This document shows positions 4,020 to 38,301 of a stretch of DNA of 64,000 nucleotides, one piece after another. Every line of letters begins with the position of its first letter. Within the stretch, counting starts at the first letter, position 1. The notes below the pieces were generated by a model. That model did no database searches. It was given only the letters and a program-made list of their open reading frames with translations, and was not told the origin of the DNA. The DNA is from Negaprion brevirostris (lineage: Eukaryota). The position numbers were made by a program, and so were the translations under genes. Where the stretch lies: positions 120,496,932-120,560,931 of the forward strand of contig JARDVH010000025.1 of the NCBI GenBank assembly GCA_030324005.1, read 5' to 3'.

Positions 4020-4063
4020 TGTTTCATCTGCACTTGGATTTGGTATTTGGACCAGGGCAATTT
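4020..4063 (-). CDS. Gene A candidate cytoplasmic exon 2 (44 nt)
   Basis: ctatcctgtttcag|AAATTGCC...GAAACA|gtgagt with strong splice sites. Open as KLPWSKYQIQVQMK or EIALVQIPNPSADET. Confidence 0.5.
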
Positions 4064-4249
4064 CTGAAACAGGATAGTGCAAAATTGTAATTTTCAACAT
4101 TTTAAGTTATACAGAGAAATCAAAGTTCCACTCACGGTTCTTAAAAAAAACTGAAATCTGTCAGGCCAAGTTAATCACACTTCGATGCAAGCAATCATTA
4201 AATACGTTTCTGAGCTGACTTTTGAATCTACTTTTGCATTGAACACAGT

Positions 4250-4800
4250 AGCAGCGGTGTACTTCTGCAATTATACAGGGCGTTGGTGAGGCCACACTTG
4301 GAATATAGTGCGCAGTTTTGATCTCCTTATCTGAGGAAGGATACTCTTGCTGCAGCGGAAGTGCAGTGACGGCTTACCAGTTTGATTCCTGGAATGACGG
4401 GACTGAAGTAAGAGGAGAAGAATGAGAGGAGAATTTCATAGAAACAGATACATTTCTGGCAGCACTAGATAGGGTAGATGCATGAAGGATGTTCCCGAAA
4501 GTGTGGAATCCAGAATAAGGGCAAATATTTTACGGATACGGGGTAACTCATTTGGAACTGAGATGAGCAGGAATGTCTTCACCCGAGAATGGTGAGCATC
4601 CACAGAAAGAATTCGAAGCCAACGCATTGTTTATTTCCAATAAATAGTTAGATAAAGCTTTGCAGCAAAGCTGATCAAAGCATATAGGGAGAAGGCAAGA
4701 TAGAAGTATTGAGTTGAATGGTCAGCCATTATTATAACGTATGGTGGAGCACAGTCGAAGCGTCTAATTTATGCTCCAAATTTCTATGCTTCTATTATTA
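4250..4800 (+). mobile_element. CR1 LINE 3' fragment
   Basis: LQLYRALVRPHLEYSAQF*SPYLRKD motif followed by a CR1-like 3' end. Confidence 0.85.
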
Positions 4801-4867
4801 TCAGGGAATATATTTCAAATGAGGATCATTCACTTCCCTCAATTCTGTTTGGGTTTTTGCACGTTAC

Positions 4868-4914
4868 CGGAGTCTGTTGTTCCATCGTGCCGTTTGTCAA
4901 GATCTGAATACTTT
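4868..4914 (-). CDS. Gene A candidate cytoplasmic exon 1 (47 nt)
   Basis: tttccattgcag|AAAGTATT...CTCCG|gtaacg. Open in two frames: KSIQILTNGTMEQQTP or KYSDLDKRHDGTTDS. Confidence 0.5.
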
Positions 4915-5253
4915 CTGCAATGGAAACATTCTCAGATTGGTACTAAGAACTCCCGGGGTGCACCTTGACCCAATCAATGAATGGATCTCAGTGCTCCGCC
5001 TGCGAGTTCTGTCTTGATGCTAAGCAACGTATTTATTTCTAGTTTGAATACAATCCTTGACCAAAACTGACCAGCACTATCAACAAAGGGATGCATTTAT
5101 TCTGGAACAGCTCCATCATCTAACTCCACCTCGTCCTCACCCTATCCTATATCTGTAGTGCTGGCCAGCCGATCAGCTGATATTGCAATAATTTTGTTTA
5201 TGGAATGATATTACTGCTGGAGATTTTTATTGCATGTGAAATTTTCAGCTATA

Positions 5254-5568
5254 GGGCGGCGCGGTGCCACAGTGGTTAGTACTGCTGCCTCACAGAGCCA
5301 GGGACCTGGGTCCCATTCCCGGCTTGGATCACTGTGTAATTTGCACATTCTCCCTGTGTCTGTCTGGGTTTCTTCCAGGTGCTCTGGTTTCCTCCCACAA
5401 TCCAACGATGTGCAGGATAGATGGATTGGCTATGCTAAATTACCCCTTTAGTGTCACGGGGACTAGCTATGGTAAATGAATGGAGTTATGGGGATAGGCG
5501 TTGGATGGGATTGTGATTGAGGCAGACTTAATGACCCGAATGGCCGCCTTCTGCACTGTAGAACTCTC
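5254..5568 (+). mobile_element. tRNA-derived V-SINE (HE1-like), near full length
   Basis: gggcggc.cggtg.cacagtggttag.actgctgcctcacag head, V-domain ttgcacattctccctgtgtctg..tgggttt..tcc.ggtgctc.ggtttcctcccaca, and a CR1-like tail. Confidence 0.88.
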
Positions 5569-5675
5569 TCTACTTTCTTTATTTCAGTTTTGTTTGATTT
5601 TAAGTGAAGAGTGCGAAGATACCAACAAAGTATATCTTGTATTAAAATTGCTATTCAATATTTATGTTTACTTAC

Positions 5676-5771
5676 TCCTTTTTGATAGGATGACGCCCAA
5701 TACCGCAGAGGTTAGAATAAGAACCACTAACGCTGTACAAATCAAGCTGAATGTCAAAGTAAGATTATAAG
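5676..5771 (-). CDS. Gene A transmembrane exon (SYNLTLTFSLICTALVVLILTSAVLGVILSKR)
   Basis: ttttttttcctccag|CT TAT...AGG A|gtaagt, 96 nt. Uncharged hydrophobic helix followed by a KR stop-transfer. Confidence 0.85.
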
Positions 5772-6049
5772 CTGGAGGAAAAAAAATGAGAACAGTATTT
5801 TGCAATAAGTGTTGAATTATTACCACAGTAATTATAGCAAGGATGACTTTATCGTTCGTTTCATGGAGAAACAATGGCGTAATGAAATTGTCAAAGGACT
5901 AGTAATACAGAATCTCAATATTACTGTAATGGGGACCATTGTAGCTGGGGAAATTTGACTTGAACTAACCATTGTAGATTTTATTAAAAACCTAAACTGG
6001 TTCACAATCCTGAGGATGACGAAAGAGGAGACGTTATAAATATTATATT

Positions 6050-6430
6050 CGCAGGAGTTGAGGAATGAGGAGGGACCTCATAGAAGCATACAAAATTCAA
6101 ACAGGAATAAACAAGACAGATGCAAGAAGGATGGTCCTAATGGTGAGGGTGAAGTATGAGGATACAGGATAGACTGGTTAGGACACTGAGGATACATTTC
6201 TTCACCCAGACCATGGTCAGCTGATGGAATTCATGAACACAGAAAATATTTGGGGCCAAAACATTGAATGTTTTCAAGAGGTCATTTAGTATAGCACTTG
6301 AGGCCAAGGTGATCAAAGGATTTGAGGGAAAAGGGGGATCAGGCTGATCAACCATGATCAGAATTAATGGCGAAACAGGCTTGAAGGGCCGAATGGCCTC
6401 CTGCTCCTATTTTCCATGTTTCCATGTGTG
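6050..6430 (+). mobile_element. CR1 LINE 3' end
   Basis: RGDLIEAYKI-type motif, ending gggccgaatggcctcctgctcctat with a (ttccatgt) tail. Confidence 0.8.
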
Positions 6431-7528: not shown

Positions 7529-7570
7529 AAGTCCTCTCTGTCGAAGCTTTATTTTTCGGTTCTGGACGGT
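7529..7570 (-). CDS. Gene A stalk exon (DRPEPKNKASTERT)
   Basis: ttctttctctttgttag|AC CGT CCA...ACT T|gtaagt, 42 nt, phase 1-1, located between the Ig2 and TM exons. Confidence 0.7.
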
Positions 7571-12220: not shown

Positions 12221-14047
12221 CTGTAAAATATAAGAAAATAAATAAATTTGTCACTCAATATCCATATTTAAATATACAGTTGCAGAAAGAGCAACTGCTG
12301 GAACCTTTTAATCTATCATCCTTAATAACATTAATCAGCTCTGATAGGAAGACTGCCCCAGACTATTGGGCACACAATGGCAGCCCATGGTTCAGCGTAC
12401 TGCTTCACGTCTCGAGACTAAGGTCAGTGAATAGATGGGTAAATTATGCCGAGAGCTGAAGGAGACTAATGCTCAGGCTGTGGCCAATTGTTTGCATTGC
12501 AGCGGAGCATCAGAACAAAATTAGGAACTCATAATCCAATAGCTCTATGTTCCTACCCAACATGCTAAATGGACTCTTTCTCACAAACTGTACGCAATAT
12601 ATGGCAAAGCAGAGATACTAAAAAAAAAGCCTCACTCACTCTCTGTGTCCCTGTGTCTCTCTCTCACAGCCTTGCAATGGGGCAAAACCTTTTTTTTTCC
12701 CTGTTTCAGTCATTTATCCGGTGCTTTGTTAAAAACAATAACTTGACATTTCAAGGTTATATTGTTTGCCTAGTAACTAAATCCTATTTCAGATTAAATA
12801 TTTTTGAGTTGCCCAAACAAATCTCAATTGTCATGTTGTCGCTAAACTCGATGAAGCAAAGGGTGAGCCTGATTTTAGATGTATGATAGTTGCTTCTGTG
12901 GTACGGACACTGCCTGGAGATGAGTTCAGATGATGGAATTAAACTCAGCTATTTGATTTGGGAATATAAAGCTCGTCTCCAAATTGATGGCAATGCACGG
13001 CAAAGAAAAATCTATTTATCTGCCTGGCGATGCTGAAGGAAACATTTTCTCCCTGACGCAGTTTGACCTTCATCTCATTGCAAACATAGAACAATACAAT
13101 GAGAATCAATTTCCATTGAAATGGCTCAGCAAACTACAGAGCCTAAAGAACATTTGGCATGGATAAAAATGCTGACCTTGTCAGCAGCGCCCACGCCATT
13201 TGTAAAATTAAGAAACATTTGGATAGAAATATACGTCTATACATAAGTAGGACTGAGATTATGGGATATTGCATGACTTTCTGTNNNNNNNNNNNNNNNN
13301 NNNNNNNNNNNNNNNNNNNNNNNNNNNNNNNNNNNNNNNNNNNNNNNNNNNNNNNNNNNNNNNNNNNNNNNNNNNNNNNNNNNNNNNNNNNNNNNNNNNN
13401 NNNNNNNNNNNNNNNNNNNNNNNNNNNNNNNNNNNNNNNNNNNNNNNNNNNNNNNNNNNNNNNNNNNNNNNNNNNNNNNNNNNNNNNNNNNNNNNNNNNN
13501 NNNNNNNNNNNNNNNNNNNNNNNNNNNNNNNNNNNNNNNNNNNNNNNNNNNNNNNNNNNNNNNNNNNNNNNNNNNNNNNNNNNNNNNNNNNNNNNNNNNN
13601 NNNNNNNNNNNNNNNNNNNNNNNNNNNNNNNNNNNNNNNNNNNNNNNNNNNNNNNNNNNNNNNNNNNNNNNNNNNNNNNNNNNNNNNNNNNNNNNNNNNN
13701 NNNNNNNNNNNNNNNNNNNNNNNNNNNNNNNNNNNNNNNNNNNNNNNNNNNNNNNNNNNNNNNNNNNNNNNNNNNNNNNNNNNNNNNNNNNNNNNNNNNN
13801 NNNNNNNNNNNNNNNNNNNNNNNNNNNNNNNNNNNNNNNNNNNNNNNNNNNNNNNNNNNNNNNNNNNNNNNNNNNNNNNNNNNNCCACATCCTATACCTG
13901 AGGCTAAGTTCAGAAAACGCCGAACCCCCCCACCCCACGGGGGGGGGGGGGAGATATGGGATTGAACCAATGTTATTGGTTTTGCTCACCATCACTAGCC
14001 AGTTAGTCCAACCAACTGAGCTAAACTGGATCGACGCAAATACTCAC

Positions 14048-14087
14048 CCAATGAAAGAAGAAAGACCAGTCGGAACATGTTATCCAT
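14048..14087 (-). CDS. Ig-like receptor gene A, exon 1 (signal peptide part 1, MDNMFRLVFLLSL-G)
   Basis: Minus strand reads ATG GAT AAC ATG TTC CGA CTG GTC TTT CTT CTT TCA TTG G|gtgagt, phase 1. The second ATG (14078) gives a 31-nt coding exon, matching the paralogous exon at 38271-38301. Confidence 0.8.
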
Positions 14088-14129
14088 AGGGTGTGCTGAA
14101 AGTGGGAAACCAAGAATATGAGCATGTCA

Positions 14130-14230
14130 GTGGAGCATGCACACGCTGACCTTAGCCCCAGTAACACATCGACGTTACAGACTGCTAACCACACCGGATG
14201 TCTTGCGCCACAATGGAAAACTCAGTCCCT
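14130..14230 (-). promoter_or_regulatory. Putative proximal promoter of gene A, conserved with gene B (38340-38430)
   Basis: Shared blocks ttagccccagtaac and cggatgtctt..gccaca lie ~70-130 bp upstream of both ATGs. Gene A has AACCACA (RUNX-like) abutting CCGGATGT (ETS-like) at 14187-14201. Confidence 0.35.
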
Positions 14231-14926
14231 TGTTCTTTGTTTCGTTGTGATAACATAATTGCTTGGTACAGAGTTAAAATGGAAACCGATGAGTCGGCAG
14301 GGGTGCGAAAAAAGACGAAGAATCCCTTGACGAAGGCGCTGTAATTGCATTAAATTCAATTATAACCAATCAATAAGCTAGCAAACTAGTGCTAGTTAGT
14401 TATGTATAACACGGTAATATTCAATTCTTTAAAGCATTGTCCAATGCTTCCCTTTGCGTTACATGGCCCCTCTGATATGCTATGTCCCGAGTTCCGCTTT
14501 CTGCTCAATACACGTTTCAGTTCCTGTCTGCTGCAGCAGTGCAGAGAAGCTGAGCCACCCCTGTGGTTATGCCAGGATGGTGTGCATGACGAAGATAATG
14601 TAGCTCAACCTGCCTGCTTGCACAAAAATAATCAATGCGATTTGTCGGGGAAGACTCCCGAAGGTGAAAACAAATATAACTCAGTTTTATTTTTCTGAAT
14701 AAAACTGAGTGATACCCACTTCGCTCAGTACCAGTTCGTTTGTTGCACGCAGTCGGGCTTCACCCGACCGTGATCAGTTGAATGCACAATGCAAGCAGAA
14801 TAGCGAGGCCAAACGGGATGTGGATGCGCTTGGTGTACGAGTCGCGAAAGACTAGTGTACAGATAGAGCAAATATTTAAGATGAAGTTATTCACTTAATA
14901 TTACTGTGGGGGAATTAATTACCAAA

Positions 14927-16247
14927 CTATGGTGTTGCTGCTGCCACCGTTGCTATGGAGCAAACTGCCCTTGACTCCCTGGATGAAGCCTCACAGGGAT
15001 TCACTGAGGGGTGTTCCGTGGTGAGCATCACGGAAGCGTCACCAGCATGTAAGACACCACCCACCAACGCAGAGCTGATCACCATGGTCGGTGACTTAAT
15101 TGTTGAGGCTTCTGGGTCATGGACTGCTGAACACATCACAGCCGCCGAAGCACTTTGGGTGGAGGCGGGCACATCTGAGGGCCCGGGCTTACGGGGGTCT
15201 ATTGGATGCCAGGATTCAGCTGTCCCCAAGCCAGTTGCTGGTCCTCTGGGTTTGTTCCTCCTAATGCTGGTGCAGATGCATCGAGAAACCCGGGGAATTT
15301 TGGAAGTGCTGTCAGCCTCCATGCTGTGACTGCAAGGCTGCTCAGGGGCCTCAGAGTGCTGTTACAGGAAATGGTGCTGACACACAGCTTGAGACCCAGT
15401 CCAACAATGAAAGGGTTGTTACCGCAGTGGAAGGCCTGGCTCAGGGATTTGTCCTCATGTTTGACGGCATCCACACCATCCTGGAGACACAACAGGCCAC
15501 AGGCGAGTGTGCTTCTGGCATCCAGGAGGCACAGCATTCGATGGCCAGGGGCATGTGGGAGACACTGTTCGTCATGGCTGGGCCTCTCACTAGCATTGTG
15601 GAGACACAGCAGTCCGTGGGTATGAGCGTTGACAACTTAGCCCAGGCTTAGAGGGCGACTGATGAGAGGATCCAGAGCCTGACTCACTCACAGAATACTG
15701 TAGTGGAGGGGCTGCAGAGCGTGACCAAGGCTTAGAGGGCAAAGGTTGAAGGGTCACACATCATGGGGCAGATGGATCTAGGCCTCCATGACTGGCAGAA
15801 GCAGATGACGTCAGAGCTTCTGGAGCTCAGCCCAGCTAACCTAGCATCACGTGGAATGCCCTGGGGCCTCTGAGCACCCGAATGGAGGAGGAAGGGATTG
15901 AGCCCATGCCAGGGTCTTCCACCCAGGAGATTCTGAACGTCCTAAGACCTTCTAATTCCCCCCTTCCTCACACCGTGTCATCCCAGGGCCAGTGGGATGA
16001 AAAGCATGGCACCAAAACAGTATCATCCACAGATCAGCCAGGGCCTCCAGATTCTGGCCATAAAGGGGACATCCATCAAGAGCATCAGCACAGGCAACCG
16101 AGCGTGCATCACAGCTGGACACCTCCATCTCCCATGCGCATCGTGGGGTAGCCCCGAGGAAAAAGCAGTAGACAGCCAAAGTTAGAAAGTTGTAGTCCAC
16201 TCGAGGACACGGCTAAATGTTGAGAACACAATGAACTGTTAATTGCA
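14927..16247 (+). mobile_element. GC-rich decayed insertion, probably the accessory-ORF region of a Harbinger-type DNA transposon
   Basis: Abrupt GC shift where gene A/gene B upstream homology breaks. Broken low-complexity ORF with ~42-nt coiled-coil-type repeats (15590-15770). The family call is recalled similarity only. Confidence 0.4.
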
Positions 16248-16539: not shown

Positions 16540-19500
16540 ACGGACAGGCAGGCTTGGCCCAGTCTTGCCATGTCCACCCATGTGAACTATCTAAATAAGT
16601 TACACGTAACAATTGTCGCACGGGAGTTTTGAGTTCATCTTTAATAAATATAAATAGAAACAACATTAGGAACAAAAGCCGTTATTACAATTGAGAAGCT
16701 TTGCACGTTGCTTTGCCACTGCAATCGAACCACATCCTGCCTTTCACTTAGCAACAAACACTAAATGTTCTTCCAATATAGCTGAGGCAAAAATAACACT
16801 TGTGGTCATTATTGGTGGTGTGTTTTTTTTTCGGATTAGCTCCATATAATGACATAAAGGCTGCTCGTGTTTCATTTCAAACGCATGTTATAAAAGAAGG
16901 TCAGTATCAATTCGATAAAATATTCTAACAGGATGAGGCTTAGCCATGTTGCTTAATGAAGTGCAGCGCTATACTTGTCAAACCGCGATTCTCCTTTGAG
17001 ACGCAGCTTAAACGATCTCAGGGCTCAGTGAAAAGGGAGTAAACCGAACAAACTTTTGACGTAACTGTCTTATTTTCTAGAAAAGTTATCTCAAAAGCTC
17101 CTGATAATGTGTCGCAAAAAATCCTTTGTATGCTTAACATAGAATGAGGGATTTATAAAAAAAAAGTTATTACTGTAACTAAGCATGAATTGAGGCAATG
17201 ATTAGATTTACGATCCGCTCAATTTCAGGTCCAGTGATGCCAGCGAGATTGGTACTAATTCTGTATCACTTGCTCTGAAAGGGAGCAACAATACAGCTGG
17301 TGCAAATAGGAGAAACCCTGACATAATAACACACGACATGAAAACTAAAGTAAGATAAATGATTAAAAAGTCGTGTTGGGCACCCTGAATGAGAGTGTCT
17401 ATACAATATCATCTGCAACTGCTCAAGTAAGCAGATCATCACCACCTTCTCTAACGCAATAATAAATGCTGGCCTAACCAACGACACCCATTCACCAAGA
17501 ACGCATCATTAAAAAGGATGTCTGTCTTTAGTTATAGTCATTGAATGCACACACGTAAATTGACGCTTAAAATTAATGGAATCCACGAAGAAATGTCTTC
17601 ACTTGGAGCCGGTTTTGTGGAGTATCCCAACTGCAAATTCCAGACAGCAGGCATATCTCCGCAGGCATTGGCATGTTCTGTTGCTTAGCTCAGTATTCAT
17701 TACAAATATTTTACATTCCATTGATTTGAATGAAGGGTGAAATACGGCACCAGGCAAGATAAACCAATCACTTGAACAGTTTAGTCCAAACAACCAGGCG
17801 AGCCGAATACTCTGGTAACTAGAAACGTGAACATTTTGACAGCGAGAGAAATTATATACATAAAATGTATTTATATAGTTCTGAGAAATCTTCGAAAACA
17901 GTAACCACACAGGACTTGAACAATAACATCAATGGGGGAAAAACACACACACACAATATTGGAGCTGAGGTGGACTCCAGTGCTATTTTATAGCGGCGTA
18001 TATAGACGATTGCTGCCTTGTCAAATATTCGTGAGAACCTGTGCCTATATCCGTGAACGTGACCATGTCATACGTGTGGTCAAGCTGGAAGAGAAAAAAG
18101 AAACAACACCAATCATTTCAGTGAGGAAAAGGAATACATGTGTCCTTTTTGTCCACATTTGTATCGATTTTCAGAGCAATCACTTTACGCAAGGGTGCTG
18201 TATTCCCACTTTGACAAAGCCTACCCGCAAACGCCTCCAAATACGCCAATGGCAGGAGGAAAGAACCCCCGGGAGAGTCTCTTTGTCAGTTAGGCTGGCA
18301 CTGGAATGGCGCCCCTTAAGCTCGCAGTCACTGCTAGCAGTCTAGCGGCCTTGGTCCGTGCATTATGAGTTATGGAATAAAAAAAAAATCCACCGTGCAC
18401 CACTGGTTGTGGAAAGTGACTTGAAATTATTCCACTACAAACATGCCGCTATTAGTTTAAGTAGCCCAAAGGTCCCTGGGTCATTACATTTACAATGAAA
18501 GGAGTTTGAAACGACTTCTGGTCGGATCAGGATGGGATGATTATTAAAATGAGCCTTAAGAATAACTTCGTCTGCTAAGTTTCTATGTGATATCACATTT
18601 CGCTCATTGTCTGACATAAATTTCTCCATAAGATTTGGAAAACTGGTGGAGTTGAGGTGTTTCTCCTCAGGGTTCGCGCATTTATTATCTCTATGATAAT
18701 GGTTTGCATGGTTGACCTATACAAAAATAATTATTGCAACATGAAACTTGGAGGCAATGTGAATAATAAGGATGCGAGGTAACAGATTTGTTGAACCCGA
18801 AGGCACTGAGCCGATATAACCCTATGCAAAAAATAAATGAAGAACTAATTATTTCCAAGGAGAAGGCGAGTCAATATATGAAGAAAATGGAATTCAATTG
18901 GGAGTGAAATCACATAGAGAGCTGGGCGTGCATGCCACAGGATACTGAAAGTGACAAGGCAGGCCGAATGGATGGTGAAAAAAAAACTTACACGCTTGCA
19001 AGGTTTTTATATCGAAACACAGATTTGCAAGCAGTGAAATGATGATGACATTGTAAGACATGTTTTCATTGGAAGCCACTAGATCATAGAGCCCGATTAT
19101 GTCCACCTCGCCATAAATATGTTTCTAGAAAAGTGAACTAAACTTGCATCAAGACCATTGGGAATTCATTTAAGCGAGTGTAATGGACTATCACAGGTTG
19201 ACGCACTTAAGAGATTGTAAGATTCCAAGGATATTTATTGGAGGTGTTGGAAATGATTAACAGGTCTGGGCAGTGTAGCTGGATATAAGCTGTACTCAGT
19301 ACTGAATGATATTAGGTGCAAGGACAACATATGGTAAACACATAAAACACTTGTTTTGTTTCATGCAGCGTCTGATTAGCAACTTAAGTGCATTGTTTAG
19401 GAGTGTGAAGGTCGCATCTTCAATCGTTGCATTCAAAGGCAATACAATATTCATAGGAGGTGGGGCGTGCATCGTTGTCATTACAGGAAAGGATGGGCAA

Positions 19501-20105
19501 ATTGTCCAGGCGGTGTTACGCTTGCAAAAAACCAGTGCTGACACGATGAGACAAATGCAACCCGTCTCTGTGACAGCATTCAATAAACGCGCGAAAGTTG
19601 TGCTGGTTCGGCGCGTTGGCCATGCTAAATTCTCCCTCAACGCACACGATGCAACGCATCAAAGTGCGGCGACTAGGGACTTTTCACAACTTCATTGCAG
19701 TGTTAATATAAGCCTACTTGTAACGCTGATAAACATTTTTTAATCAATATGTTTATCACTGTATAGAAAGTCTTTATCATAACAATCTTACATTTTCCGA
19801 GATTCTCTTGCCTATCTTCCTCACTACTGCATCTGAAAAAAAAAGTTACGTTTATAGACAAATAAATATGCATTCATCTTGCTACACATAATATTTCCAA
19901 GGTCCACCAGATCTACGGTTTTTACTGGGAATAATTGTTTTCTACATTGACAACTGCAAGACAAAAGAGCAATGTTTCAAATATTAAGATAATGGAAAAC
20001 GGGTGATAAGAGTTTTTTTTACAAAGACGTCTCTCTAACAGTTTGTGTTTTACTCATTTCACTGGTAAGGAATATAGGGCAATAAAAATGTCGATTTACT
20101 GGGAA
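16540..20105. repeat. Non-coding duplicated block D, copy 1 (upstream of gene A)
   Basis: Colinear with 57597-61024 and 61125-64000, e.g. gtgacttgaaat..ttcc..tac and tagtttaagtag..caaag.tccctgg at 18416/59509/62260. Contains embedded CR1 and SINE remnants. Confidence 0.85.
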
Positions 20106-23100
20106 CAACTGCATGCACTGGTCTCCATTAATTTGGATTAGCTTCGAAGCTTGCCATAAGGTCTGACACGGACTATCCTCCATTGGCGTCCCTAAAAACA
20201 AAGCGCGTGTGGCTTATTCCTCACTGTCTACACACACCTTCTCCACAGCCTGGAAGTTTGTGCAGATGAATGTCTTTAGGCTCAGTTGCACACTATTTAA
20301 CCAGAATTGGAAAACCTGCAAACAGTGTTGGAGAAGGCCTTTTGCATGGGAAGATTATTTTTAAAGAAATGAATAGCTATTTAATCATAAAACTAGAGTA
20401 ATCGCGAATAATGAATAGTAATACAGCTATTGTAGTTAATCAACCAGGACAATATTATGATTATTTTAATAACATTCACAATACATCAATGTATTATGGT
20501 CCACATAATTATAACTTGGACAGACATGTGGGCTGCAGGCTGGGCCAGCATTTCTTCTCCATCGCTAATTGCCCTTACAGTTCCCGTCTCTCCTGGCCAT
20601 TATAGAAACCAGTTGATGTTCAATCTCATTGTAGTTGACCTGGAGTCGTGCATAGGGAAGGATATCAGGTTTCCTTCCCCAGTGGGTGATCATTGAACCA
20701 ATTGGGTTCCGCATCATCATCATTCGACTTTATTTTTATTGAATGCAAATTTCAAAATTGCTGTATTGTGATTCGAACCCAGGTTATTAACCTGGGCTTC
20801 TGAGTTATTAATCCAGTGTCAATACCACCACTACATTGCCTCCCCCAAGCATATTTAAATATAATCAAATAATACTCTTGGTATCAAACCGTAAACTTCA
20901 TCAACTACTCGGGAAATATATACTTCATAAAGTATTTTGCATATGTCCAGAGAAATTTATTTCGAAAACCATATTGTAAATGGTGGGACATTTTCCTAAT
21001 CTAAGTCAAATGAAATGACTATTTATAGGGGCCAATTTCTTTCTCCGAGATCTTTTTTTTCATCATCATGGTCTGTCAAGTTATAAACTAACAGCTCAAC
21101 GTTGAGTTTCTAATCTCTTTGTAATAACTGTCTCTAATATTGACATGGACATTAGACAGTGGCTTTCAAATACTTTAATTTGTTTATCGAGATTAGTTCC
21201 ACCTCTGGATGACATCTGTGCAATCAAACTTTGTTAAGGTGAGCAGAGTGTAATTCTCGATCCTTAATATTATTCCATTTCAACAGTTACTCACAAACAG
21301 GTGCGGTGTTTTCCTCATTTTGCTGCATATTTAAAGTCAGTTGCCTGTAAAAGAAAATGGACAATTTTCATTTATTTCATTCAGATCACGTTTCTTTTCT
21401 TGCAGTTATTGATTTGATAGCAGGTAGTAGTCAATTCAGGCCATCAAGTTATTCCTAATATAACTGCTGAAACAGGGCAGCAGGTACATTGAAACACCGC
21501 CACTTGGAACTTCCCTTTCAATACATTCAACAATCTGACTGCGAAATAGATCACCTTTCCTTCACTATCACTGTGCCAAAATCTTGGAATTGCCTCCCTA
21601 AATTAACAGCGGGTGAACCTCCGTCACAACGGTTGTTGAGGTTCAAAAAGACAGCTGACTATCACCATCTAAAAGTTTAATTATGGATAATGGTGCACGA
21701 ACTAATGAAGGTCATGTCCCTTGAATGAATAATGGAATATTATCAGTGTCACTTAATTTAAAGTTAGTTCACGCAGTGTTTTCATATTTTCGATTGGACA
21801 AAACTATACGAAAAGCCGAAGAGCTGAAGTATTCTGTTCTCGGTGCTTTGAAAGGTAGTAACGATAGCGGCAATGTAGAATAAACACTTTAATGGGATAT
21901 CATGATATTTCCTTTCAATTGTTGAAGGTATCGTTAGCTGCCTTTGTAGATCAGACACAATTTGGGAGTGGATGGCAGGTAAACAGAGGGGCAGAGTTCA
22001 CAATTGATGCTCTACGAGGAACAGTACAGCACACTGTGCTATTCGCAATTTAGCTCAGCGATTATTATCTTGGAATCAGAATTTCTAATTTGGTAAAGGA
22101 GACAAAGTGGCGTGGTATGGAACGGCGGAGAAATGTAATCGGATATCTGTAAACAACAAAAAGAAAACAAAACATTTTTGATAGAAATGCCAGATTTTAG
22201 GATTATCATGCAAGTCTGAGGACGTGGGAGAGACAATGGGGCCGCGGAGGGAAAACTCTGAGTCGTCCAAGCTCTGCCAGAGCTCAGCAAGGCCTTCGAA
22301 ATAAACCAGGCACTAGAACTTAAGACTCGAGGGATACAAATGAAAAATAGCGTTACTCTCATAGAAATCGAACTTTGTTAGAAGACACATAACATATTGC
22401 ATGAAAGTTCATCAAAATGGATGTGGAAGTTTAGTTGAGCTCGTAGAAAAATTGTGGAGGAAGAAGGCATAAACGTATTGTTACCTCAATCAGGCAGACA
22501 TTGCCAGATTGTCTCTCTTTTATCTTTTAAAACAAGTATTGTGACCGACTGGTGTTTTTTTTTAATGGAGTAGATACAGAAAGAATTGTTCATCTTGTAA
22601 GGAAGAACGTGACGAAAACCCAAGAATATAAAGGATTTTCCACTGGGAATCTTTTTCCCAAATGAACACTCACGGAGCTGACCCATGGCCTGCACTTACA
22701 AATAAAGTAATGTATAAATCACAAGCCGTGTTCAGTTGCAGTTGGAACCTTGCAGGGTTGATCAGTTCAGTTGTTCCAGAATGGTGCTGCGTTTCCAACT
22801 GTTGAAAATTCGTGTTGTGATGCAATAAAATGTTTTTTTTTAGTCTTCTAATAATCAGAGTAGACAAAATGTTGACCTAATAGTAATGTCTCAGGTTATG
22901 AAATCATTTCGGAGAGTAAACAGACATATCAATATTTCCAGTGATAGTTTTAGCTAAGTTTGAATAAAGGCATTGGACCCTTAAAAAGAAACTCTCTAAA
23001 GTGTACATAATAACATAAGAACATAAGAAATAGCAGCAGGAGTCGGCCATCTCGCCCTTCGAGCCTGTAATTTTGCAAATTTGTAATGTTGTAATTTTGT

Positions 23101-24521: not shown

Positions 24522-24561
<40 letters not shown>

Positions 24562-27679: not shown

Positions 27680-27926
27680 ATAAATTCCCTTCAGTGCAGA
27701 AGGAAACCATTCGGCCCATCGAGTCTATGCCGACAAAAAGCCCGCCCAGGCTGTACTCCCGTAACACCACCTGTTTACTCTTTTGATCTCCTGACGTTAA
27801 AGGAGCAATCTAGCATAGCCTATGCACCTTACCTGCGCAGTTTTGGACTGTGGGAGGAAACCCGGGTACCCAGAGGAAACCCCCAAAGACACGGAGAGAA
27901 CGTGCAAACTCCACACAGGCCTGGGG
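27680..27926 (-). mobile_element. V-SINE fragment
   Basis: tttggactgtgggaggaaacccgg.tacccagaggaaacc...gtgcaaactccacaca is the reverse V-domain. Confidence 0.8.
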
Positions 27927-28262
27927 NNNNNNNNNNNNNNNNNNNNNNNNNNNNNNNNNNNNNNNNNNNNNNNNNNNNNNNNNNNNNNNNNNNNNNNNNN
28001 NNNNNNNNNNNNNNNNNNNNNNNNNNNNNNNNNNNNNNNNNNNNNNNNNNNNNNNNNNNNNNNNNNNNNNNNNNNNNNNNNNNNNNNNNNNNNNNNNNNN
28101 NNNNNNNNNNNNNNNNNNNNNNNNNNNNNNNNNNNNNNNNNNNNNNNNNNNNNNNNNNNNNNNNNCCTCAACTCCGGTATCAGCCAAGTAAACCTCCTCT
28201 GCACTCCCTCCAAGGCCAAAACATCCTTGCGTAAGTGTGGCGACCAGAATTGCACACAGTGT

Positions 28263-29210
28263 TGTGCAGCATTCCACAGAGGCAGTTCCCTCCAGGATAA
28301 CCGCGACCACTCTTTCACTATACTCAACAGATCTCTCCTCACCCATGACACCTTCCCATGCATTCGCATAACGTGCACCACCTGCCCCTTTACCTTTCCT
28401 ATGTTTACCATCCAAGGTCCAAAACATTCACTCCAGGTTAAGTAGCGTTTCACTTGCACCTCTTTCAATTTTGTCCCCTGCATTCGCTGTTCTCAATGTG
28501 ATCTCCTCGATATCGGAGAGACCAAATGTGGACTGGGTAATCACTTTGCTGAACATCTGAGGTCTGTGCCCAATCAGCATCCTGACCTTCCTGTAGCGTG
28601 CCATTTTGACCCACAATTCTGCTCCAATGCCCACATGTCCATCATTGGCCTGCTACAATGTTCCAGTCAGGCTCAAAGCAAACAGGAGGCATAATATCTC
28701 ATCTTCCAGCTTGGCATTTTACAGTCTTCCGGCCCCAATACTCAATTCAACAACTTCAGATTAGCTCTACCCCACCTGGGCCCCTTTCTTTTCAATTTAT
28801 TTACCTTTTAATTCTTGATTGCCTTTCTTTATTTTTCTTCCAAATCATTCACCCTATTTTGTTCCCTTTCCTTATTTTTTTCTCTATCTTTGCTTCTCCT
28901 TCTCCCATTTTTTCTCAATATTACCACTCTTCCACCCATCCATCGCCCTGCCCTTCACACACACACGCAAACAAACAAACACACCTACATCTGTCACAGC
29001 TTACCCTCTGATTTCACGTTTTCTGGTGGTTGGCCATTCATACGTATTATTATCTCTATGGACTTCCACTTGCAGCCCTTCCCCTCGATTTTATGGCTAA
29101 GACTCACCTTTAATTCCCTCACCCTGCAGACTAAAGATTTCTCACTTCCTATGCCTTTTAGATTTGACATAGAGCCACCTGGACTTGATACATCAGTTAT
29201 TTTCTCACCT
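28263..29210 (+). mobile_element. Penelope-like element, GIY-YIG endonuclease remnant
   Basis: CIRCSQCDLLDIGETKCGLGNHFAEHL*SV at ~28480-28570 matches the YIGETxRxLxxRFxEH pattern, followed by a pyrimidine-rich 3' region. Confidence 0.75.
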
Positions 29211-29646: not shown

Positions 29647-29745
29647 CTCTTTTGTTTGTCACTCCAATGCAAGGCAAAACAATGATGAGCAGAAGTAGTA
29701 GCAGTGTAAATCCAAGATAAAGTGTCAAATTTCTGCTGAATCTAT
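29647..29745 (-). CDS. Gene B transmembrane exon (DRFSRNLTLYLGFTLLLLLLIIVLPCIGVTNKR)
   Basis: gctttttcag|AT AGA...AGA G|gtaact, 99 nt. Hydrophobic helix followed by KR. Not in the ORF track. Confidence 0.85.
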
Positions 29746-29879
29746 CTGAAAAAGCACCCCCAAAAAAAATCTTCTGTTATTTTGCAAAGCAATTTCATAA
29801 AGTTATTGAACGTTTGCAATCCCTTGCAAATAAACCACTGTTTTCAGTGTTGAAGGTGTCCATTGCAAGCTTTATTGGA

Positions 29880-30118
29880 ATTTATTGGAATTCTATGAGG
29901 ATGTGTCTAGTGCGGTGGATGGAGGGGAACCGGTGGATGTGGTGTTTCTCGATTTTCAGAAGGCGTTTGNNNNNNNNNNNNNNNNNNNNNNNNNNNNNNN
30001 NNNNNNNNNNNNNNNNNNNNNNNNNNNNNNNNNNNNNNNNNNNNNNNNNNNNNNNNNNNNNNNNNNNNNCGGCCGGAGGGCCTACTCCTGCTCCTATTTC
30101 TTATGTTCTTATGTTCTT
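29880..30118 (+). mobile_element. CR1 LINE fragments spanning an N-gap
   Basis: LLEFYEDVSSAVDGGEPVDVVFLDFQKAF RT motif before the gap; tail ttatgttcttatgttctt after it. Confidence 0.85.
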
Positions 30119-31344: not shown

Positions 31345-32260
31345 TTTATTTATTCGTGGAACATGAGAGTCACTAGCTCGCCACCATTTATTGCCCATCC
31401 CTAGTTGCCCCTTAGAAGGTGCTGGTAAACTTTCTTTTGCATTGTTGCAGTCCATGTTCTGTGGGTTGACCTACAATGCCCTTACGGGTGGGGGCGGGAA
31501 GTGGGTGAGGGGGCAGTGGGGAGTCCACGATTTTGACCCAGTGAGTGTAAAGCAAAAACAATGTATTTCCAAGTAAGGATGGGAAATTGCTTGGATGGGA
31601 ATTTTCACGTGGCGGTGTTGCCATATATCTGCTGCCCTTTTCCTTCTAGATGGAAGTGGCTGTGAGTTTGGAAGGTGCTGTGTAAGCACCCTTGATGAAT
31701 TGCTGCAGTGTACCTTGCAGACGGCACATTGCTACTGACCGTCGGTGATGGAATGAGGGTGGGAGGGTTTGAATGTTTGTAGATGTGGTGCTAATCAAGC
31801 AGCCTGTTTTGCCCTGGATGTTTCAAGCTTCTTGAGTGCTGTTGGAGCATCACCCATTCAGACAAGCGGGGAGTATTCCATTACACTCCCGACTTGTGCC
31901 TTGTAGATGGTGGATAGGCTTTGGGGAGTCAGGAGTTGAGTTACTCGCCACAGTGTTACAAGCCTCTGACCTGCTCTTGTAGCCACTGTGTTTTTGTGAT
32001 TGGTCCAGTTGAGTTTCTGGTCAATGGCAATTCCAAGGATGATGACATTGGGGGATTCAGTGATGGCTACACCATGAAATGTCATGGAGCGGTGGTTGGA
32101 GTGTTTCTCATTTGTTATGGTCATTGCTTGGCCCGTGTTTCTTGCCTCCTGTCAGCTCAAACCTGAACAACGTCTAGATTTTTTTTTTACATTTGAACAT
32201 GGACAGCTTCAGTATCTGACGACTCACGAATTGTGCAAACATCCTTACTTCTGTCCTTAA
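31345..32260 (-). mobile_element. CR1/L2-group LINE 3' fragment (duplicated at 35361-35850)
   Basis: ILGIAIDQKLNWTNH...AGQRL...LSTIYKAQVGSVMEYSPL. Confidence 0.8.
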
Positions 32261-32433
32261 GACACAGGGAAGGGAACCAGAACAAAATATTAATAGTCAA
32301 TCGAATTAAATGTCAGCAGAGATTGATGAAACACAATTTGGATAGTTATTGACAAGGAAATGCAATAGAGGTGTTCTTTTTTTTATTTGAAACATGGTAT
32401 ATTTAAGTGCAATCAATAGTAAAATTCACCCAC

Positions 32434-32739
32434 CTATCACAGTCAATGCAATAGGATCACTTTGCACGGAATTAAGCCATCGTCCAGAAACATTGGAATA
32501 ATACATGCATCGGTACTGTTGAACGCCATAATCGATGATCTCTGTGAGGTTGAAGGTCACAGTCTTGTTTCCTCTCAGGATTATCGGTCCTGTGATTGGA
32601 ATCGATTCGTTCGTTTTGTATAAGTGGAACATTACGCTCACATCCTCAATCTGGGCGGTGCAGGTCAATAAGATCAATTCCCCCTTTATAAATGTTGTAA
32701 AATTCGAATTCGGGACCATCTCGGGTTTTTTTGGACGCT
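32434..32739 (-). CDS. Gene B Ig exon (ERPKKPEM...LTC...QYRCMY...SDPIALTVI)
   Basis: tttccgttcag|AG CGT...ATA G|gtgggt, 306 nt, phase 1-1. The YRCxY...W..S..SDP ending is typical of LRC-type domains. Confidence 0.88.
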
Positions 32740-33164
32740 CTGAACGGAAAATAGGTTTTAAATTTCAGAGGTACAAAAAGCTAAAACAATTAATCTCCTT
32801 GCTATTACAAAGTAACAGAGGAATCAAGCAAAAACAATTTCACTGCTATCCACCAACCATTTCAAAATCCATTTCACAGCTCAGTATCTCTCCTTATCTC
32901 CAGCCATCTCCTTCTGTCGCCTCCATCTCCTTCCTTCCTTCCCTCCTTCCCTCCCTTTCCCTCCCGTCCCTTCCGTTCCTGCCTTCTTTCTTGCCTTCCT
33001 TCCATCCTGCCTTTCTTCCTGACTTCGGAAATAATGATGGCACTCGTTATTTCTGGCGCAACACACTGGACTGTAGAAATGAGTTGGCGGGGAAAACAAA
33101 ATCTTTAATTTATTTACTGGGATTTAAATGCTGATGATATGAACGTGAACATTTTTGAACATAC

Positions 33165-33775: not shown

Positions 33776-34072
33776 CTATGACACTTATATTGACGTTGTC
33801 ACTATGCCCAGATTCCAGCCAGCTTCCTGACATTGAGATGGCACAAAGACAGCTGTACGTTTCAGAAATTGTTGCGGTAATGTTATAGCTGGCGGTGTGG
33901 TTAAGTCCCTGACGAGTAGTAGATGCATTATACACTTCTTCTCCATTTCGATAAAAATACATCCGACTGCACGAATATTTCACACTTAATTCACAGGTCA
34001 TTTTGGTAAATTCCCCTCGAAGAAGTACCACGAACCATCCATTGAAAGAAAGTGATGGAGTTTTTGGGTAAT
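33776..34072 (-). CDS. Gene B Ig exon (DYPKTPSLSF...MTC...YSCLC...NVNISVI)
   Basis: atttccag|AT TAC...ATA G|gtaagg, 297 nt, phase 1-1, with an Ig cysteine pair. Confidence 0.87.
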
Positions 34073-34329
34073 CTGGAAATAGTGGAGAGAAAGCAAGTTG
34101 GCAAAATTAAACGACAAAAAAAATACGGTTTTGTTATTTGTGAGAACATTGCATTTTGCGTCACTCTTCTTCATTGGGGGAAAAAAAATCCATGTTACCG
34201 ATTGAGTCAGAGAGAACGCACAGAGAAAACATTTATTGAATATGGACAGATACTTATTTATCAAACGGTTACAAAATTCTCGGCGGAAGGCGGGAATGAG
34301 GGGTTGAAGTTACAAGCAGATCAACCATG

Positions 34330-35345
34330 ACGAATGCAACAGGATCTTGATAAATTGGGCCAGTGGGCTGACGAATGGCACATAGAATTTAATTAAGATA
34401 AATGCGAGGTGATGCGTTTTGCTATTTTGAACCGGGTAGGACTTATTCAGTTAATGATACGGCTTGGGGACGTTTATAGAACAAAAAAGATCACGGGGTA
34501 CCGGTTCATAGCTCCTTGAAAGTGGAGTCATGTGGACTGAGTGATGAAGAAAACATTCTAGTTTAATTGGTCAGAGCATTGAATACAGGAGTTGTGACGG
34601 CTTGTTGACGTTTTACAGTACATTGGTAAGGCCACACTTGGAATGTGTGGACTGTTCTGATCACCCAAAAATAGAAAGGGCATTATTAAACTAGAACGAA
34701 CAAAGAAAATATTTACTAGGATGCTACGTGGTGCTGGATGGTTTGAATTAAAAGGAGAAGCTGGATAGATGAGGACTTATTTTTTCCAGAGCGTAGGAGG
34801 CTGAGGGACGATCTTGTAGAGGTCTATAGAATAATGCGGGGCATAGATCAGCTAGTCAATGCATTTTTCCAAAGGGAGAAGGTTCACAAGGCTGTTGCCG
34901 GGACTTGAGAAGCTGAGTAACAGAGAGAGATTGAATAGGTTAGGACTTTATTCCCTGGAGCGTAGAAGAATGAGGGGAGATTTGATAGAGTGTATAAAAT
35001 TATGATGGGTATAGATAGAGTGAATATTAGAGAGGGTGGTCTTCACGCAGAGAGTGGTGGGAGTGTGGAATGAGCTGCCNNNNNNNNNNNNNNNNNNNNN
35101 NNNNNNNNNNNNNNNNNNNNNNNNNNNNNNNNNNNNNNNNNNNNNNNNNNNNNNNNNNNNNNNNNNNNNNNNNNNNNNNAGTGCCCTATACAGCTGCAGC
35201 AAGACCTCCCTACTTTTATATTCAATCTCCCTCGCTATGAAGGCCAGCATCCCATTTGCCTTCCTGACGACCTGCTGCATCTGCAGGCTGCGTTTTTGCG
35301 ACTCATGCACAAGGACCCCGAGGTCCCTCTGCACCGTCGCATGCT
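34330..35345. mobile_element. Nested CR1 LINE fragments
   Basis: QDLDKLGQWADEWHIEFN*DKC and RMRGDLIECIK on plus; QRDLGVLVHES...KANGMLAFIAR on minus. Confidence 0.85.
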
Positions 35346-36029
35346 GCAGTTTTTCGCCAAATGTGCCAATCAAGCAGGCGATTTTGCCCTGGATGGTTCA
35401 AGCTTCTTGAGTGCTGTTGGAGCTGCACCCATTCAGACAAGCGGGGAGTATTCCATTACCCTCCCGACTTGTGCCTTTTAGATGGTGGATAGGCTTTGGG
35501 GAGTCAGAAGTTGAGTTACTCGCCGCAGTGTTCCAAGCCTCTGACCTGCTCTTGTAGCCATTGTGTTTTTTGTGGTGGGTCAAGGTGAATTTCTGGTCAA
35601 TGGTAACAGCAAGGGTCATGACATTGAGGGATTCAGTGATCGTTACACCATTAAATGACAAGGGTTGGTGGTTGGAGTGTTTCTTATTTACTATGGTTAT
35701 GGCTTGACATTTGTGTGGCGCCCATGTTTCTTGCCACTTGCCATTTCAAGCCTGAACACTGTCCAGATCTTTTTACATTCGAACATGGGCTGCTTCACTA
35801 TCAAAGGAGTCATGCATTGTGTAAACATCCTTACTTCTGACCTTAAGACGGAGGGAAGGGAACAAGAACAAATTATCAATAGTCAACTGAATTACATGTC
35901 AGCAGAAATTGATAAAACGCAATTTGGATAGTTACTGACAAGGAAATGCAGTAAAGATGCACCGCAGAAGTGTTTTTTTTATTTGAAACGTGGCACATTT
36001 AAATGCAATAAGTAATGAAATTCGCCCAC

Positions 36030-36329
36030 CTATCACAGTCAATGCAATAGGATCACTTTTCACGGAATTAAACCATCGTCCAGAAACAGTGGAATAATAC
36101 ATGCATCGGTACGGCTGAACGCCATAATCGATGATCTCTGTGTGGTTGAAGGTCTTGTTTCCTCTCAGGATTATCGGTCGTGTGATTGGAATCGATTCGT
36201 TCGTTTTGTATAAGTGGAACATTGCGCTCAAATCCTCTATCTGGGCGGTGCAGATCAATAAGATCATTTCCCCCTTTATAAATATTGTAAAATTCGAATT
36301 CAGGGCCATCTCAAGTTTGGTTGGACGGT
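36030..36329 (-). CDS. Gene B Ig exon, duplicate of 32434-32739 with a 6-nt deletion
   Basis: tttccgttcag|AC CGT CCA...ATA G|gtgggc, 300 nt. DRPTKLEM...LLICTAQ...YRCMYYSTVSGRWFNSVKSDPIALTVI. It lies on a contig bounded by N-gaps. Confidence 0.8.
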
Positions 36330-38270
36330 CTGAACGGAAAACAAGTTTTAAATTTCAGGGGTACGAAAAGCTAAAACAACTCGTGCCCTTACTATTAGAA
36401 AGTTACAGGGGAATTAAGCAAAAACAATTTCACTGCTATCCACCAACCATTTCCAAACCCATTTCACATCTCAGTACCTCTCTTTATCTCCAACAATCTC
36501 CTTCTGTCCGCCTCCATGTCCTTCCTTCCTTCCCTCCCGCCCGCGCTCTCGCCCCTCNNNNNNNNNNNNNNNNNNNNNNNNNNNNNNNNNNNNNNNNNNN
36601 NNNNNNNNNNNNNNNNNNNNNNNNNNNNNNNNNNNNNNNNNNNNNNNNNNNNNNNNNACACACGCACACACACACACACACACACACACTCAATCTCTCT
36701 CTGGCACACACTCTTTATATCACAAAACTCCCTTTTTCTCTCGCACACAAACACAGATACTCTCGCTCTCATACACATTCCCTCTGTCATACGCCGACAG
36801 AGGCGCAGGCAAACTTCTACACACGCGCACATTCCAGCTTTCACTCACGGAAGGATTATACATGGAACAAGAAATAATAGTTGTCACTGGAAAACAACAC
36901 CTGCAATAACAATCAATTAACTGAATTCAATTCAAACATGCAAGGTCTTCTTGGTTTATTGATCCCCTGCGTTAATGATGCTTTATCACAGAAATATACT
37001 GCAACTATTCTAACACAGCCGCATAATGGAACAGAGCCCAATCATTTTGGCTGTTTCAGTATGACTGAAAGAGACTGAAGTCTGGTGCATTGTAAAAACA
37101 GATATTTGTCATGTCTGGGTTACATTGTCTGAATAACTAACTACTTCTTCAGATAATTTGCTTGTGAATTGAACAAACAGATCTCAATTTCCATGTTGTC
37201 GCTAACGTCGTTTAGGCAAGGAAGTGAGCCTGTTTGGATAAATGATGGTTACTCCTGCGGCTGAGGTATTACCTGGAAATTTGCATCTAAATGGTTGAAT
37301 TTAAATTCAGGTAACTGATCTGGGAACACAGAGTTGGTGTCCGCAATGATGGCAATGGATGGCAGCAGAAATCTATTTGTCTGGCGATGCTGGTGGAAAG
37401 CATCTCTTCCTAAGGCAGTCTGGCCTTCATGTGATTGCAAACATGTGGCAATGTTTGAAGAATTGTCTTCGATTGAAACGGCTTAGCGAACCACACAGCC
37501 CAAAGACCATTTGGGAGGCTAAAAATGCTGACGTTGTCTGTAGTGCCCACAACACTTGTAAAATTAAGAAACGTTTGTATAGAAGTATGCACCTATATAT
37601 CTGAGAGTATTGGACATTGCACGATGTTTTGTAAAATCAATGTCATCAGTAAGAATTCAGTTCTCCAAACTGATCCTGGCAATTCAGCAGGCTGAATTGT
37701 ACAGTAGTTGCTAATGGCATGAGCACGCCAGTAACTTTTCCTAAAATCATTTATTTTTACTGTGACATTTTAATCTGCGCCCTTAGTTATTTTCTACGTC
37801 AACCTGTAACTGTTTTACTTCTTTATTGCAGAAAACCTCTTTTTTTTCCTTGCATCACCTCGCAATTAGAAATTGTTAGTGTCCTATTTATTAAAAAATG
37901 TATAACATTGTTTAGTCCCAAAAGCATCCGCACAGTATGTTCTCAAAACATCAAAAACACATTAAAAAATACAAATTAAGAGCTGTTGCTTAACTGTTGT
38001 CGAAACACAGAATATTCTGTAAAGCGATTGGCAAACATGTCATTGTACTGAGAGCACAAATCACACAACTAAAGGGAAAGCCAACCTAGTACCAAATGCC
38101 GCTCCGCTGCTCGACTGGTGGTGCTCAGCACACCTCAGGCGAGGGGTAAAGTTCAGAATAGGAACAACCTCAATGGATATAGGATTGAATCCATGCCATT
38201 GGCATTGGTCAGTAATCTCTAGCCAGTTGTCCAACCAATTGAAATAAACCAGCCCCACACAAGCGCGCAC

Positions 38271-38301
38271 CCAAGGACAGCAGAAAGATCGGTGGCAACA
38301 T
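38271..38301 (-). CDS. Ig-like receptor gene B, exon 1 (MLPPIFLLSL-G)
   Basis: aacATG TTG CCA CCG ATC TTT CTG CTG TCC TTG G|gtgcgc. It and its flanks align with gene A exon 1 (13960-14250 vs 38180-38440). The donor site is weak. Confidence 0.7.

Follow-up and report, generated by a model that had tools for sequence, protein, structure and literature searches.

A tandem cluster of shark Ig-type receptor genes with a probable relationship to the leukocyte receptor complex

Described receptor systems and the shark locus

The closest known system to the genes described here is formed by the receptors of the leukocyte receptor complex (LRC): LILR/PIR, KIR, LAIR1, GPVI, NKp46, OSCAR and IGSF1/A1BG, together with chicken CHIR and Xenopus ILR. 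The genes lie in a 64,000-nucleotide (nt) stretch of the Negaprion brevirostris assembly GCA_030324005.1 (contig JARDVH010000025.1, positions 120,496,932 to 120,560,931), hereafter the window. Akula et al. (2014) found no LRC or FcRL homologues in sharks and held both to have arisen with bony fish (PMC4016189); Guselnikov and Taranin (2019) called the history of the non-mammalian LRC unresolved and the NxxR transmembrane (TM) motif the most conserved LRC element (PMC6557307); KIR/LILR are classed as mammal-specific (PMC13262535); in the paper on the whale shark genome, the natural killer (NK)-complex lectin cluster is reported to be without orthologues in cartilaginous fish (PMC8455134); and an ancestral-genome reconstruction places an LRC segment on a proto-gnathostome microchromosome (PMC8302630). 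In the excerpts of PMC6795676 and PMC8455134, LILR and a KIR gene, respectively, go unmentioned. No description of a shark LRC-type family was found in the literature searched, which takes in few subscription journals. LRC-like regions in fish are reportedly the subject of a 2021 Immunogenetics paper by Wang, Belosevic and Stafford, which may bear on novelty.

We read the window as a section of a tandem cluster, evolving by birth and death, that encodes type I membrane receptors in this carcharhiniform shark, and the elasmobranch receptors to which its genes belong are, on balance, probably an LRC-related family, with C2-type Ig domains that lack the C-strand Trp and with ITIMs (immunoreceptor tyrosine-based inhibitory motifs). 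In common with LRC receptors, the family has Trp-less C2 domains, each encoded by one phase 1-1 exon of ~300 nt (7/7 in the window; the design is not unique to the LRC), LRC chains as best structural matches, a domain tree that leans towards a shared clade against FCRL-like and sialoadhesin domains, tandem clustering, domain-block shuffling, and a C-terminal ITIM. It differs from LRC receptors in that its domains fall outside the tetrapod clade, no NxxR activating TM is seen, two domain types carry an extra Cys pair, and gene A of the window lacks a signalling motif. A family of sharks and rays that is expanded in tandem and combines an LRC fold with ITIMs conflicts with the published claim of absence and supplies concrete candidate genes. 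How old the LRC is, and which receptors serve sharks as inhibitory and Fc receptors, become testable with existing chromosome-level assemblies. No new mechanism is involved, and the genes pre-exist as RefSeq models.

Ig exons and the structures of genes A and B

A scan for open phase 1-1 exons identified seven Ig exons in the window, all on the minus strand, flanked by AG and GT, and 288–306 nt long. A family hidden Markov model (HMM), built from 765 homologous domains and run against six frames of the window, recovered the same seven exons at 46–76 bits, with the next best match at 5.2 bits; the exon scan and the family HMM found no further Ig exon in 39–64 kb or on the plus strand. Pfam Ig models match six of the seven. 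All seven exons lack the C-strand Trp, and none of them varies in the two Cys, the F-strand Tyr or the S-x-x-S end. An earlier sequence-only reading of this stretch had described phase 1-1 exons of exactly these lengths, without the canonical Trp and with SxxS ends, and it is correct on all three counts. Two further motifs that it listed hold in part: the P.KP start is present in four exons and absent from three, and YxCxY is present in five, the remaining two having YxCxC. The two YxCxC exons also carry a C-strand Cys, which probably forms an extra C–F disulphide.

Gene A encodes an intact two-Ig receptor with an uncharged TM and a tyrosine-free tail. Its eight exons run from 14078 to 1704, have canonical splice sites, and join to an uninterrupted frame of 308 codons. 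A leader (31 + 30 nt) is followed by the two Ig domains, a stalk exon, the TM exon and a tail of two exons, in agreement with the two-domain gene with split leader and TM exon that had been proposed from the sequence. Parts of gene A match independent RefSeq models, at 75–86% identity in Mustelus and at 57–59% in Cetorhinus, Carcharodon and Scyliorhinus. The exons, all on the minus strand, are:

14048..14078, minus: leader exon 1 (31 nt from the ATG); GT donor, in frame, like the N-termini of P0004 and P0007
12191..12220, minus: leader exon 2 (30 nt, phase 1-1); AG/GT, tblastn matches from P0004 and P0007
10773..11060, minus: Ig domain 1 (288 nt); Pfam Ig_3 E 2.9e-7, 75% identity to Mustelus P0004
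8965..9255, minus: Ig domain 2 (291 nt), with an extra Cys pair and a second acceptor 3 nt upstream; Ig_3 E 6.9e-7, 80–82% identity to Mustelus
7529..7570, minus: stalk exon (42 nt); 14/14 residues identical to Mustelus P0005
5676..5771, minus: TM exon, membrane span without charged residue; 75% identity to P0005
4020..4063, minus: cytoplasmic exon 1 (44 nt); AG/GT, in frame, similar to the tails of P0004 and P0005
1704..1805, minus: terminal exon, tail tyrosine-free; phase-0 acceptor, begins with ELQ like its homologues

Gene B encodes at least four Ig domains and a TM, with tail exons that end in an ITIM conserved in other sharks. In particular, four Ig exons and the TM exon splice in frame, in the same order as in B-type relatives; three of the domains have their counterparts in Mustelus P0002 at 79, 74 and 72% identity, and identity to Heterodontus P0001 is 39–56%. 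The tails of relatives, used as tblastn queries, located the terminal exon at 18084–17983. Together with exons 21344–21295 and 19832–19792 it makes an open tail with three tyrosine motifs, the last of which, SIYAAI, is a strict match to the ITIM consensus. The extent that the sequence-only reading gave to the feature omits this tail (21344–17983), as well as the gene A exon at 1805–1704 and the terminal-exon copies at 61937 and 59183. The exons of gene B are:

33776..34072, minus: Ig exon, the second domain of the orthologues, with an extra Cys pair; 79% identity to Mustelus P0002
33165..33464, minus: Ig exon; 74% identity to P0002; its model has a predicted local distance difference test (pLDDT) score of 94, and its six best structural matches are all LRC
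32434..32739, minus: Ig exon; 72% identity to P0002
30405..30710, minus: membrane-proximal Ig exon; 43–56% identity to B-type relatives, weak match to Pfam Ig_C19orf38 (E 0.005)
29647..29745, minus: TM exon (99 nt, phase 1-1) with an uncharged span; aligns with the TMs of P0013, P0024, P0032 and P0074
25162..25189, minus: low-confidence candidate for a first tail exon (28 nt, phase 1-2); good donor, no AG acceptor, likeness to the P0024 tail by eye
21295..21344, minus: tail exon (50 nt, phase 2-1); strong acceptor and donor, in frame with the next two exons
19792..19832, minus: tail exon (41 nt, phase 1-0), which completes the Tyr motif YAVV; acceptor conserved in two paralogous blocks
17983..18084, minus: terminal exon with HTYDMV and the C-terminal ITIM SIYAAI; 52% identity to the tail of Mustelus P0024 (E 2e-4)

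Complete B relatives (P0001, P0002, P0013, P0074, P0158 and P0159) start with a different leader and an extra first domain. No B-type leader was found in the sequenced bases of the window, and the first domain of the orthologues has no counterpart in them, the best match being 33% as against 72–79% for the other domains. Two elements lie upstream of the four Ig exons:

38271..38301, minus: A-type leader exon 1; its flank, 37081–38845, has 68–72% DNA identity to the 5′ region of gene A at 12717–14926
36030..36329, minus: duplicate of the B Ig exon at 32739 (300 nt, with a 2-codon deletion); 280/300 nt identical (93%)

The leader with its flank may belong to the 5′ end of either a second A-like gene or a chimera. 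Between this leader and the first Ig exon, a search for leader exon 2 found none; a 52-nt candidate at 36900–36849 was discarded, as the frame that it would need contains a stop. The duplicate exon sits on a 1.4-kb contig between two 100-N gaps, which lie at 35080 and 36558, as part of a duplicated block (35363–36550 versus 31788–32959), and it is uncertain whether it belongs to gene B. Its comparison with the 32739 exon gives 82 identical, 2 synonymous and 15 non-synonymous codons; positive selection is unsupported, as 15 non-synonymous changes out of 17 (p 0.16) are not different from neutral. The sequence-only reading had united leader, duplicate and downstream exons into a split-leader gene of at least five domains. 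Given the A-type leader, the gap-bounded duplicate and the missing first domain, this is probably not one native gene; it may instead be chimeric, have further exons that stay hidden, or consist of parts of two or three genes. The paralogy of the two genes also needs qualification: A and B differ as subfamilies, with A domain 1 at 18–26% identity to the B domains.

Relationship of the shark and ray family to known receptors

Three homology searches returned 31 named shark and ray proteins (some of them isoforms) from nine genera: Mustelus, Scyliorhinus, Heterodontus, Chiloscyllium, Cetorhinus, Carcharodon, Hypanus, Hemitrygon and Mobula. Identities are 57–86% for A and 38–79% for B domains overall, and the closest relatives are Mustelus asterias proteins (72–86%). 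Three Mustelus proteins, of both types, are encoded on one 148.8-Mb contig, two of them with LOC numbers five apart, LOC144493887 and LOC144493892; seven Hemitrygon proteins are encoded on one 63.1-Mb contig; and in Scyliorhinus canicula the A and B types are on different contigs (16.1 and 98.3 Mb). Relatives show copies in tandem as well as repeated domains within single proteins. An expanding chondrichthyan family of Ig-type receptors, as suggested by the sequence-only reading, is supported, with several members per chromosome. The family is already in the databases as RefSeq models, under machine names only, and these names conflict (IGSF1-like, A1BG-like, CEACAM5-like, FCRL5 and uncharacterized, even within one subfamily); automatic names of such proteins are described as misleading by Guselnikov and Taranin (PMC6557307).

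A TM is predicted in 24 of the 31 named proteins, and a strict ITIM is present in 8 of these 24. The ray proteins P0020, P0066, P0160, P0162 and P0164 have a tail with an ITIM in tandem with a motif like the immunoreceptor tyrosine-based switch motif (ITSM), and the same contigs carry paralogues with near-identical TMs that are free of tyrosine motifs. In P0048 and P0153, which join ray proteins at a 45% threshold, the TM contains an Arg but no NxxR. Searched with a profile, a set of 1.84 billion representatives gave 961 proteins at E ≤ 1e-10; the best 150 of these include many with the same Trp-less domain, some fused to SRCR domains, and the domain type is therefore not confined to the A and B subfamilies. 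In P0010, P0011, P0018 and P0082 the Trp-less Ig domain is interleaved with SRCR domains, with up to 25 Ig domains in 3,218 aa. P0042, P0086 and a 20-member cluster have the same Trp-less domain and, in some cases, ITIMs, and fall outside the tetrapod LRC clade in a quick tree. Pfam Ig_C19orf38 (HIDE1) passes the whole-protein cut-off in 17 of the 18 family members scanned. The A-type relatives P0055 and P0094 have extra N-terminal domains that score on the same model, which suggests that HIDE1, a mammalian protein on which little work exists, may survive as part of this domain group.

Structural comparison and domain trees lean towards an LRC relationship. The model of B exon 33464, compared with 48,161 chains, has LRC chains as its six best matches (Z 12.4–13.5, root-mean-square deviation (RMSD) 1.8–2.6, 89–93 residues aligned): PirB and LILRB4 at Z 13.5 (RMSD 1.8–2.0), LILRB4 at 13.3, CHIR-AB1 at 13.2, KIR3DL1 at 12.8, and LILRB1 at 12.4. 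Behind these come PECAM-1 at 11.9, CD22 at 10.3, FcgRI at 10.2, FCRLA at 9.8, and FCRL5 at 9.4. The model of the Mustelus A orthologue (pLDDT 76) matches PirB at Z 14.0 and CHIR-AB1 at Z 13.5 (RMSD 1.5 Å, 92 residues aligned), and its top five Foldseek matches are GPVI, OSCAR, LILRB2, NKp46 and LILRB4. The fold ranking clearly covers two of the seven domain types. In an IQ-TREE analysis of 46 domains, hand-picked from more than 1,000, shark and tetrapod LRC domains form a clade with support of 99/94 (98/88 without the Trp column), within which the tetrapod LRC domains form their own clade (91/93) excluding the sharks; a 108-domain quick tree gives 89 for the Trp-less group and 98 for tetrapod LRC (SH-like approximate likelihood ratio test, SH-aLRT). 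The 46 domains comprise 7 from the window; 8 from sharks and rays, 5 of them from proteins assigned by identity; 12 tetrapod LRC domains, drawn from bat LILR-type and lizard IGSF1-like proteins and from two others of LRC type; 13 FCRL-like domains that bear the Trp; and 6 outgroup domains, including those of sialoadhesin. The shark domains would then be relatives of the tetrapod LRC clade, not nested in it, within a broad vertebrate domain group. The placement of A domain 1 beside reptile-type LRC (0.845 in a 1,033-domain FastTree) was not reproduced by IQ-TREE. A PDB search with alignment A7 was not counted as evidence because A7 contains an LRC protein, nor were matches to bat and lizard LRC.

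Several results weigh against an LRC relationship and bear on its rivals. An NxxR TM is present in none of the 24 named relatives with a TM and in neither TM of the window. PECAM-1 (Z 12.9) ties with CHIR-AB1 within 1 Z for A domain 1, and Foldseek on a single B domain returned nanobodies and unrelated sandwiches mixed with LRC chains, without a family ranking. The 46-domain tree is drawn without PECAM-1, Allergin-1, HIDE1 and mammalian FCRL, and in an approximately unbiased (AU) test a grouping of sharks with FCRL-like domains to the exclusion of LRC is not rejected (p 0.115). The last result is one reason to consider the family a shark branch of FcR/FCRL/LITR, possibly shark Ig-binding receptors, or a lineage ancestral to both FcR and LRC before their split. 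FCRL5 is moreover the best PDB sequence match; two-domain FceRIa scores higher (up to 40.8 bits) than two-domain LILRs (up to 32.3 bits); NCBI calls one Mustelus member 'Fc receptor-like protein 5'; FCRL2 is third in the ESM Atlas list for a B exon; and the scores of a chondrichthyan-only profile overlap, with LRC (median 23.0, n = 45) only modestly above Trp-bearing FCRL-like domains (median 18.2, maximum 40.6, n = 165). Long C2 arrays, a split leader and ITIM/ITSM tails are likewise shared with FcR/FCRL and teleost LITR, and a common origin of FcR and KIR has been argued (PMC2413239). However, FcR/FCRL chains reach Z 9–12 in the fold comparisons as against 13–14 for PirB, LILRB4 and CHIR-AB1, with a deficit of 3–4 Z to LRC chains in the case of the B domain; bootstrap support for the clade with LRC is 98–99; and the E-value of FCRL5 sums nine weak domains, the best of which (12.3 bits) compares with 12.5 for PirB. 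The FCRL-like sequences sampled also keep the C-strand Trp (17/19 outgroup rows), and the gene A leader exons of 31/30 nt depart from the 30/21 pattern reported for FCRL1-6/FcgRI, a pattern that itself holds for only a fraction of XFL genes (PMC2413239). The FCRL-like label in the tree rests on FCRL5 as best PDB match for 3 of the 7 proteins used, a weak criterion because shark proteins have the same best match. On this evidence we regard an FcR/FCRL affiliation as quite unlikely. The view that the B-type genes are relatives of the PECAM-1/Allergin-1/HIDE1 ITIM receptors, with roles in adhesion or myeloid inhibition, draws on the Ig_C19orf38 matches, on PECAM-1 as the best non-LRC structural match, and on the ESM Atlas features of P0159 (six Ig domains, TM, ITIMs), which are nearest to PECAM-1, Allergin-1 and HIDE1 (0.96–0.97). 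Whole-protein embeddings probably follow architecture, however, Atlas structure TM-scores are ≤0.45, HIDE1 may itself be LRC-related, and PECAM-1 is not among the 32 PDB sequence matches of P0159 at E ≤ 10 or in the top 60 of two other searches. HIDE1, Allergin-1 and PECAM-1 are single-copy genes in mammals with ITIM-type tails, whereas the shark family is expanded. We consider this affiliation quite unlikely too. A grouping with CD22/Siglec or CEACAM, which the sequence-only reading had named among its possible refutations, does not fit the domain pattern: gene A begins with a C2 domain and not a V-set, the C-strand Trp is absent throughout, CD22 scores Z 10.3, and sialoadhesin domains are outgroup in the tree. 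Skate MDIRs and teleost NITRs are also fish Ig-type immune receptors with tyrosine-based signalling; they are V/I-domain receptors related to CD300/TREM/pIgR or TCR. The window exons encode C2-type domains of ~95–100 aa.

The remaining alternative concerns the locus: the family would be real, and the locus largely gene debris or an assembly mosaic, with gene A as its sole functional gene and with gene B either a pseudogene or a product of misjoined contigs. The orphan A-type leader, the missing first domain, orphan 3′ ends and the duplicate exon between gaps of unknown size, with its neutral-like substitutions, are consistent with it. So is the junction between TM and tail, where the phase 1 end of the TM exon faces the phase 2 start of exon 21344 and no well-scoring in-frame exon was found to bridge them, the best candidate (25189–25162) lacking an AG; as a canonical in-frame exon is missing here, this copy may be defective. 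Against this, the four Ig exons, the TM exon and the three tail exons of gene B all have open frames, canonical splice sites and phases that fit; the missing exons could lie in gaps; and the repeat copies of the window share only 70–90% identity, too divergent for haplotypes, so that haplotype duplication was rejected as their source. We consider a non-functional gene B rather unlikely, an estimate that stands independently of those for the LRC, FCRL and PECAM relationships.

The LRC-like character proposed by the sequence-only reading agrees with the lean of the folds and the domain tree; orthology to the LRC stays a conjecture, the AU test being non-significant and an NxxR TM absent. The argument that exon design and motifs mark the LRC does not stand, since split leaders also mark FcR-like genes (PMC2413239) and FCRL5, PECAM-1, Allergin-1 or HIDE1 lead some of the searches. 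If the B-type proteins are inhibitory leukocyte receptors, as ITIM biology would suggest, ligand engagement would lead a Src-family kinase to phosphorylate the ITIM, and the phosphorylated ITIM would recruit SHP-1/SHP-2 and damp activation, as in LILRB/PIR-B/CHIR-B. A-type proteins would be unable to signal alone; they might be decoys, take part in adhesion, or share a ligand as co-receptors. By analogy with LILR/PIR/KIR, the ligand would most likely be a self protein of the cell surface, with MHC class I as the best guess; failing that, it might be Ig or collagen. Unequal crossing-over would duplicate domain blocks and gene ends, leaving fragments and possibly chimeras. A stronger proposal, that the cluster is the chondrichthyan LRC itself at its ancestral position, with B types sensing MHC class I and the Arg-TM relatives as activating partners, seems unlikely to us. 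If true, it would date paired LILR/KIR-type self-surveillance to the first jawed vertebrates, beside MHC, TCR and Ig, and shark NK and myeloid cells could gain receptors that they otherwise seem to lack. The LRC synteny markers TTYH1, LENG8, RPS9 and CDC42EP5 were not recognised within the 64-kb window.

Terminal-exon copies, repeats and assembly gaps

Segmental duplications are present across the window, as the sequence-only reading had stated. Two of them repeat the 3′ end of gene B:

61836..61937, minus: second copy of the B terminal exon, with ITSM-like TVYITI; tblastn match in block 61184–64000, which has ~70% DNA identity to the B 3′ end
59082..59183, minus: third copy of the B terminal exon, with ITSM-like TIYITI; tblastn match in block 57598–61022

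With these copies at 57.6–61.0 and 61.2–64.0 kb, the cluster probably continues past the window. At 19124–19060 on the minus strand, and again near 62990 and 60240, a reading with the tyrosine motif HIYGEV follows an acceptor that all three 3′ blocks conserve. This reading, for which a matching donor was sought and not found, resembles the terminal exon and is possibly an extra or alternative tail exon.

The window has 39% GC and 13 scaffold gaps of at least 100 N. Nine of these are exactly 100 N and therefore probably of unknown size, and contig order across the 100-N gaps is uncertain. Between 39466 and 56000, three to four copies of a multi-kb unit with 81–90% identity contain no Ig exon. 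The unit includes coiled-coil-like pieces of open reading frame (ORF) at 52318–52043 and 52013–51732 on the minus strand and a Tyr/Cys-rich ORF interrupted by gaps, and it may be a decayed retroelement; ten long non-Ig ORFs of the window gave no significant Pfam match. Two copies of the unit start identically directly after 100-N gaps (41107 and 50392), an indication that repeats were collapsed. The GC-rich insert (~50%) at 14919–16200, which separates genes B and A, with ORFs on both strands and without Pfam match is possibly a transposon fragment. Fragments at 179–418, 27800–28500, 29834–30118, 31861–32151 and 34951–35745, several of them beside assembly gaps, we take to be like the reverse transcriptase of long interspersed nuclear elements (LINEs).

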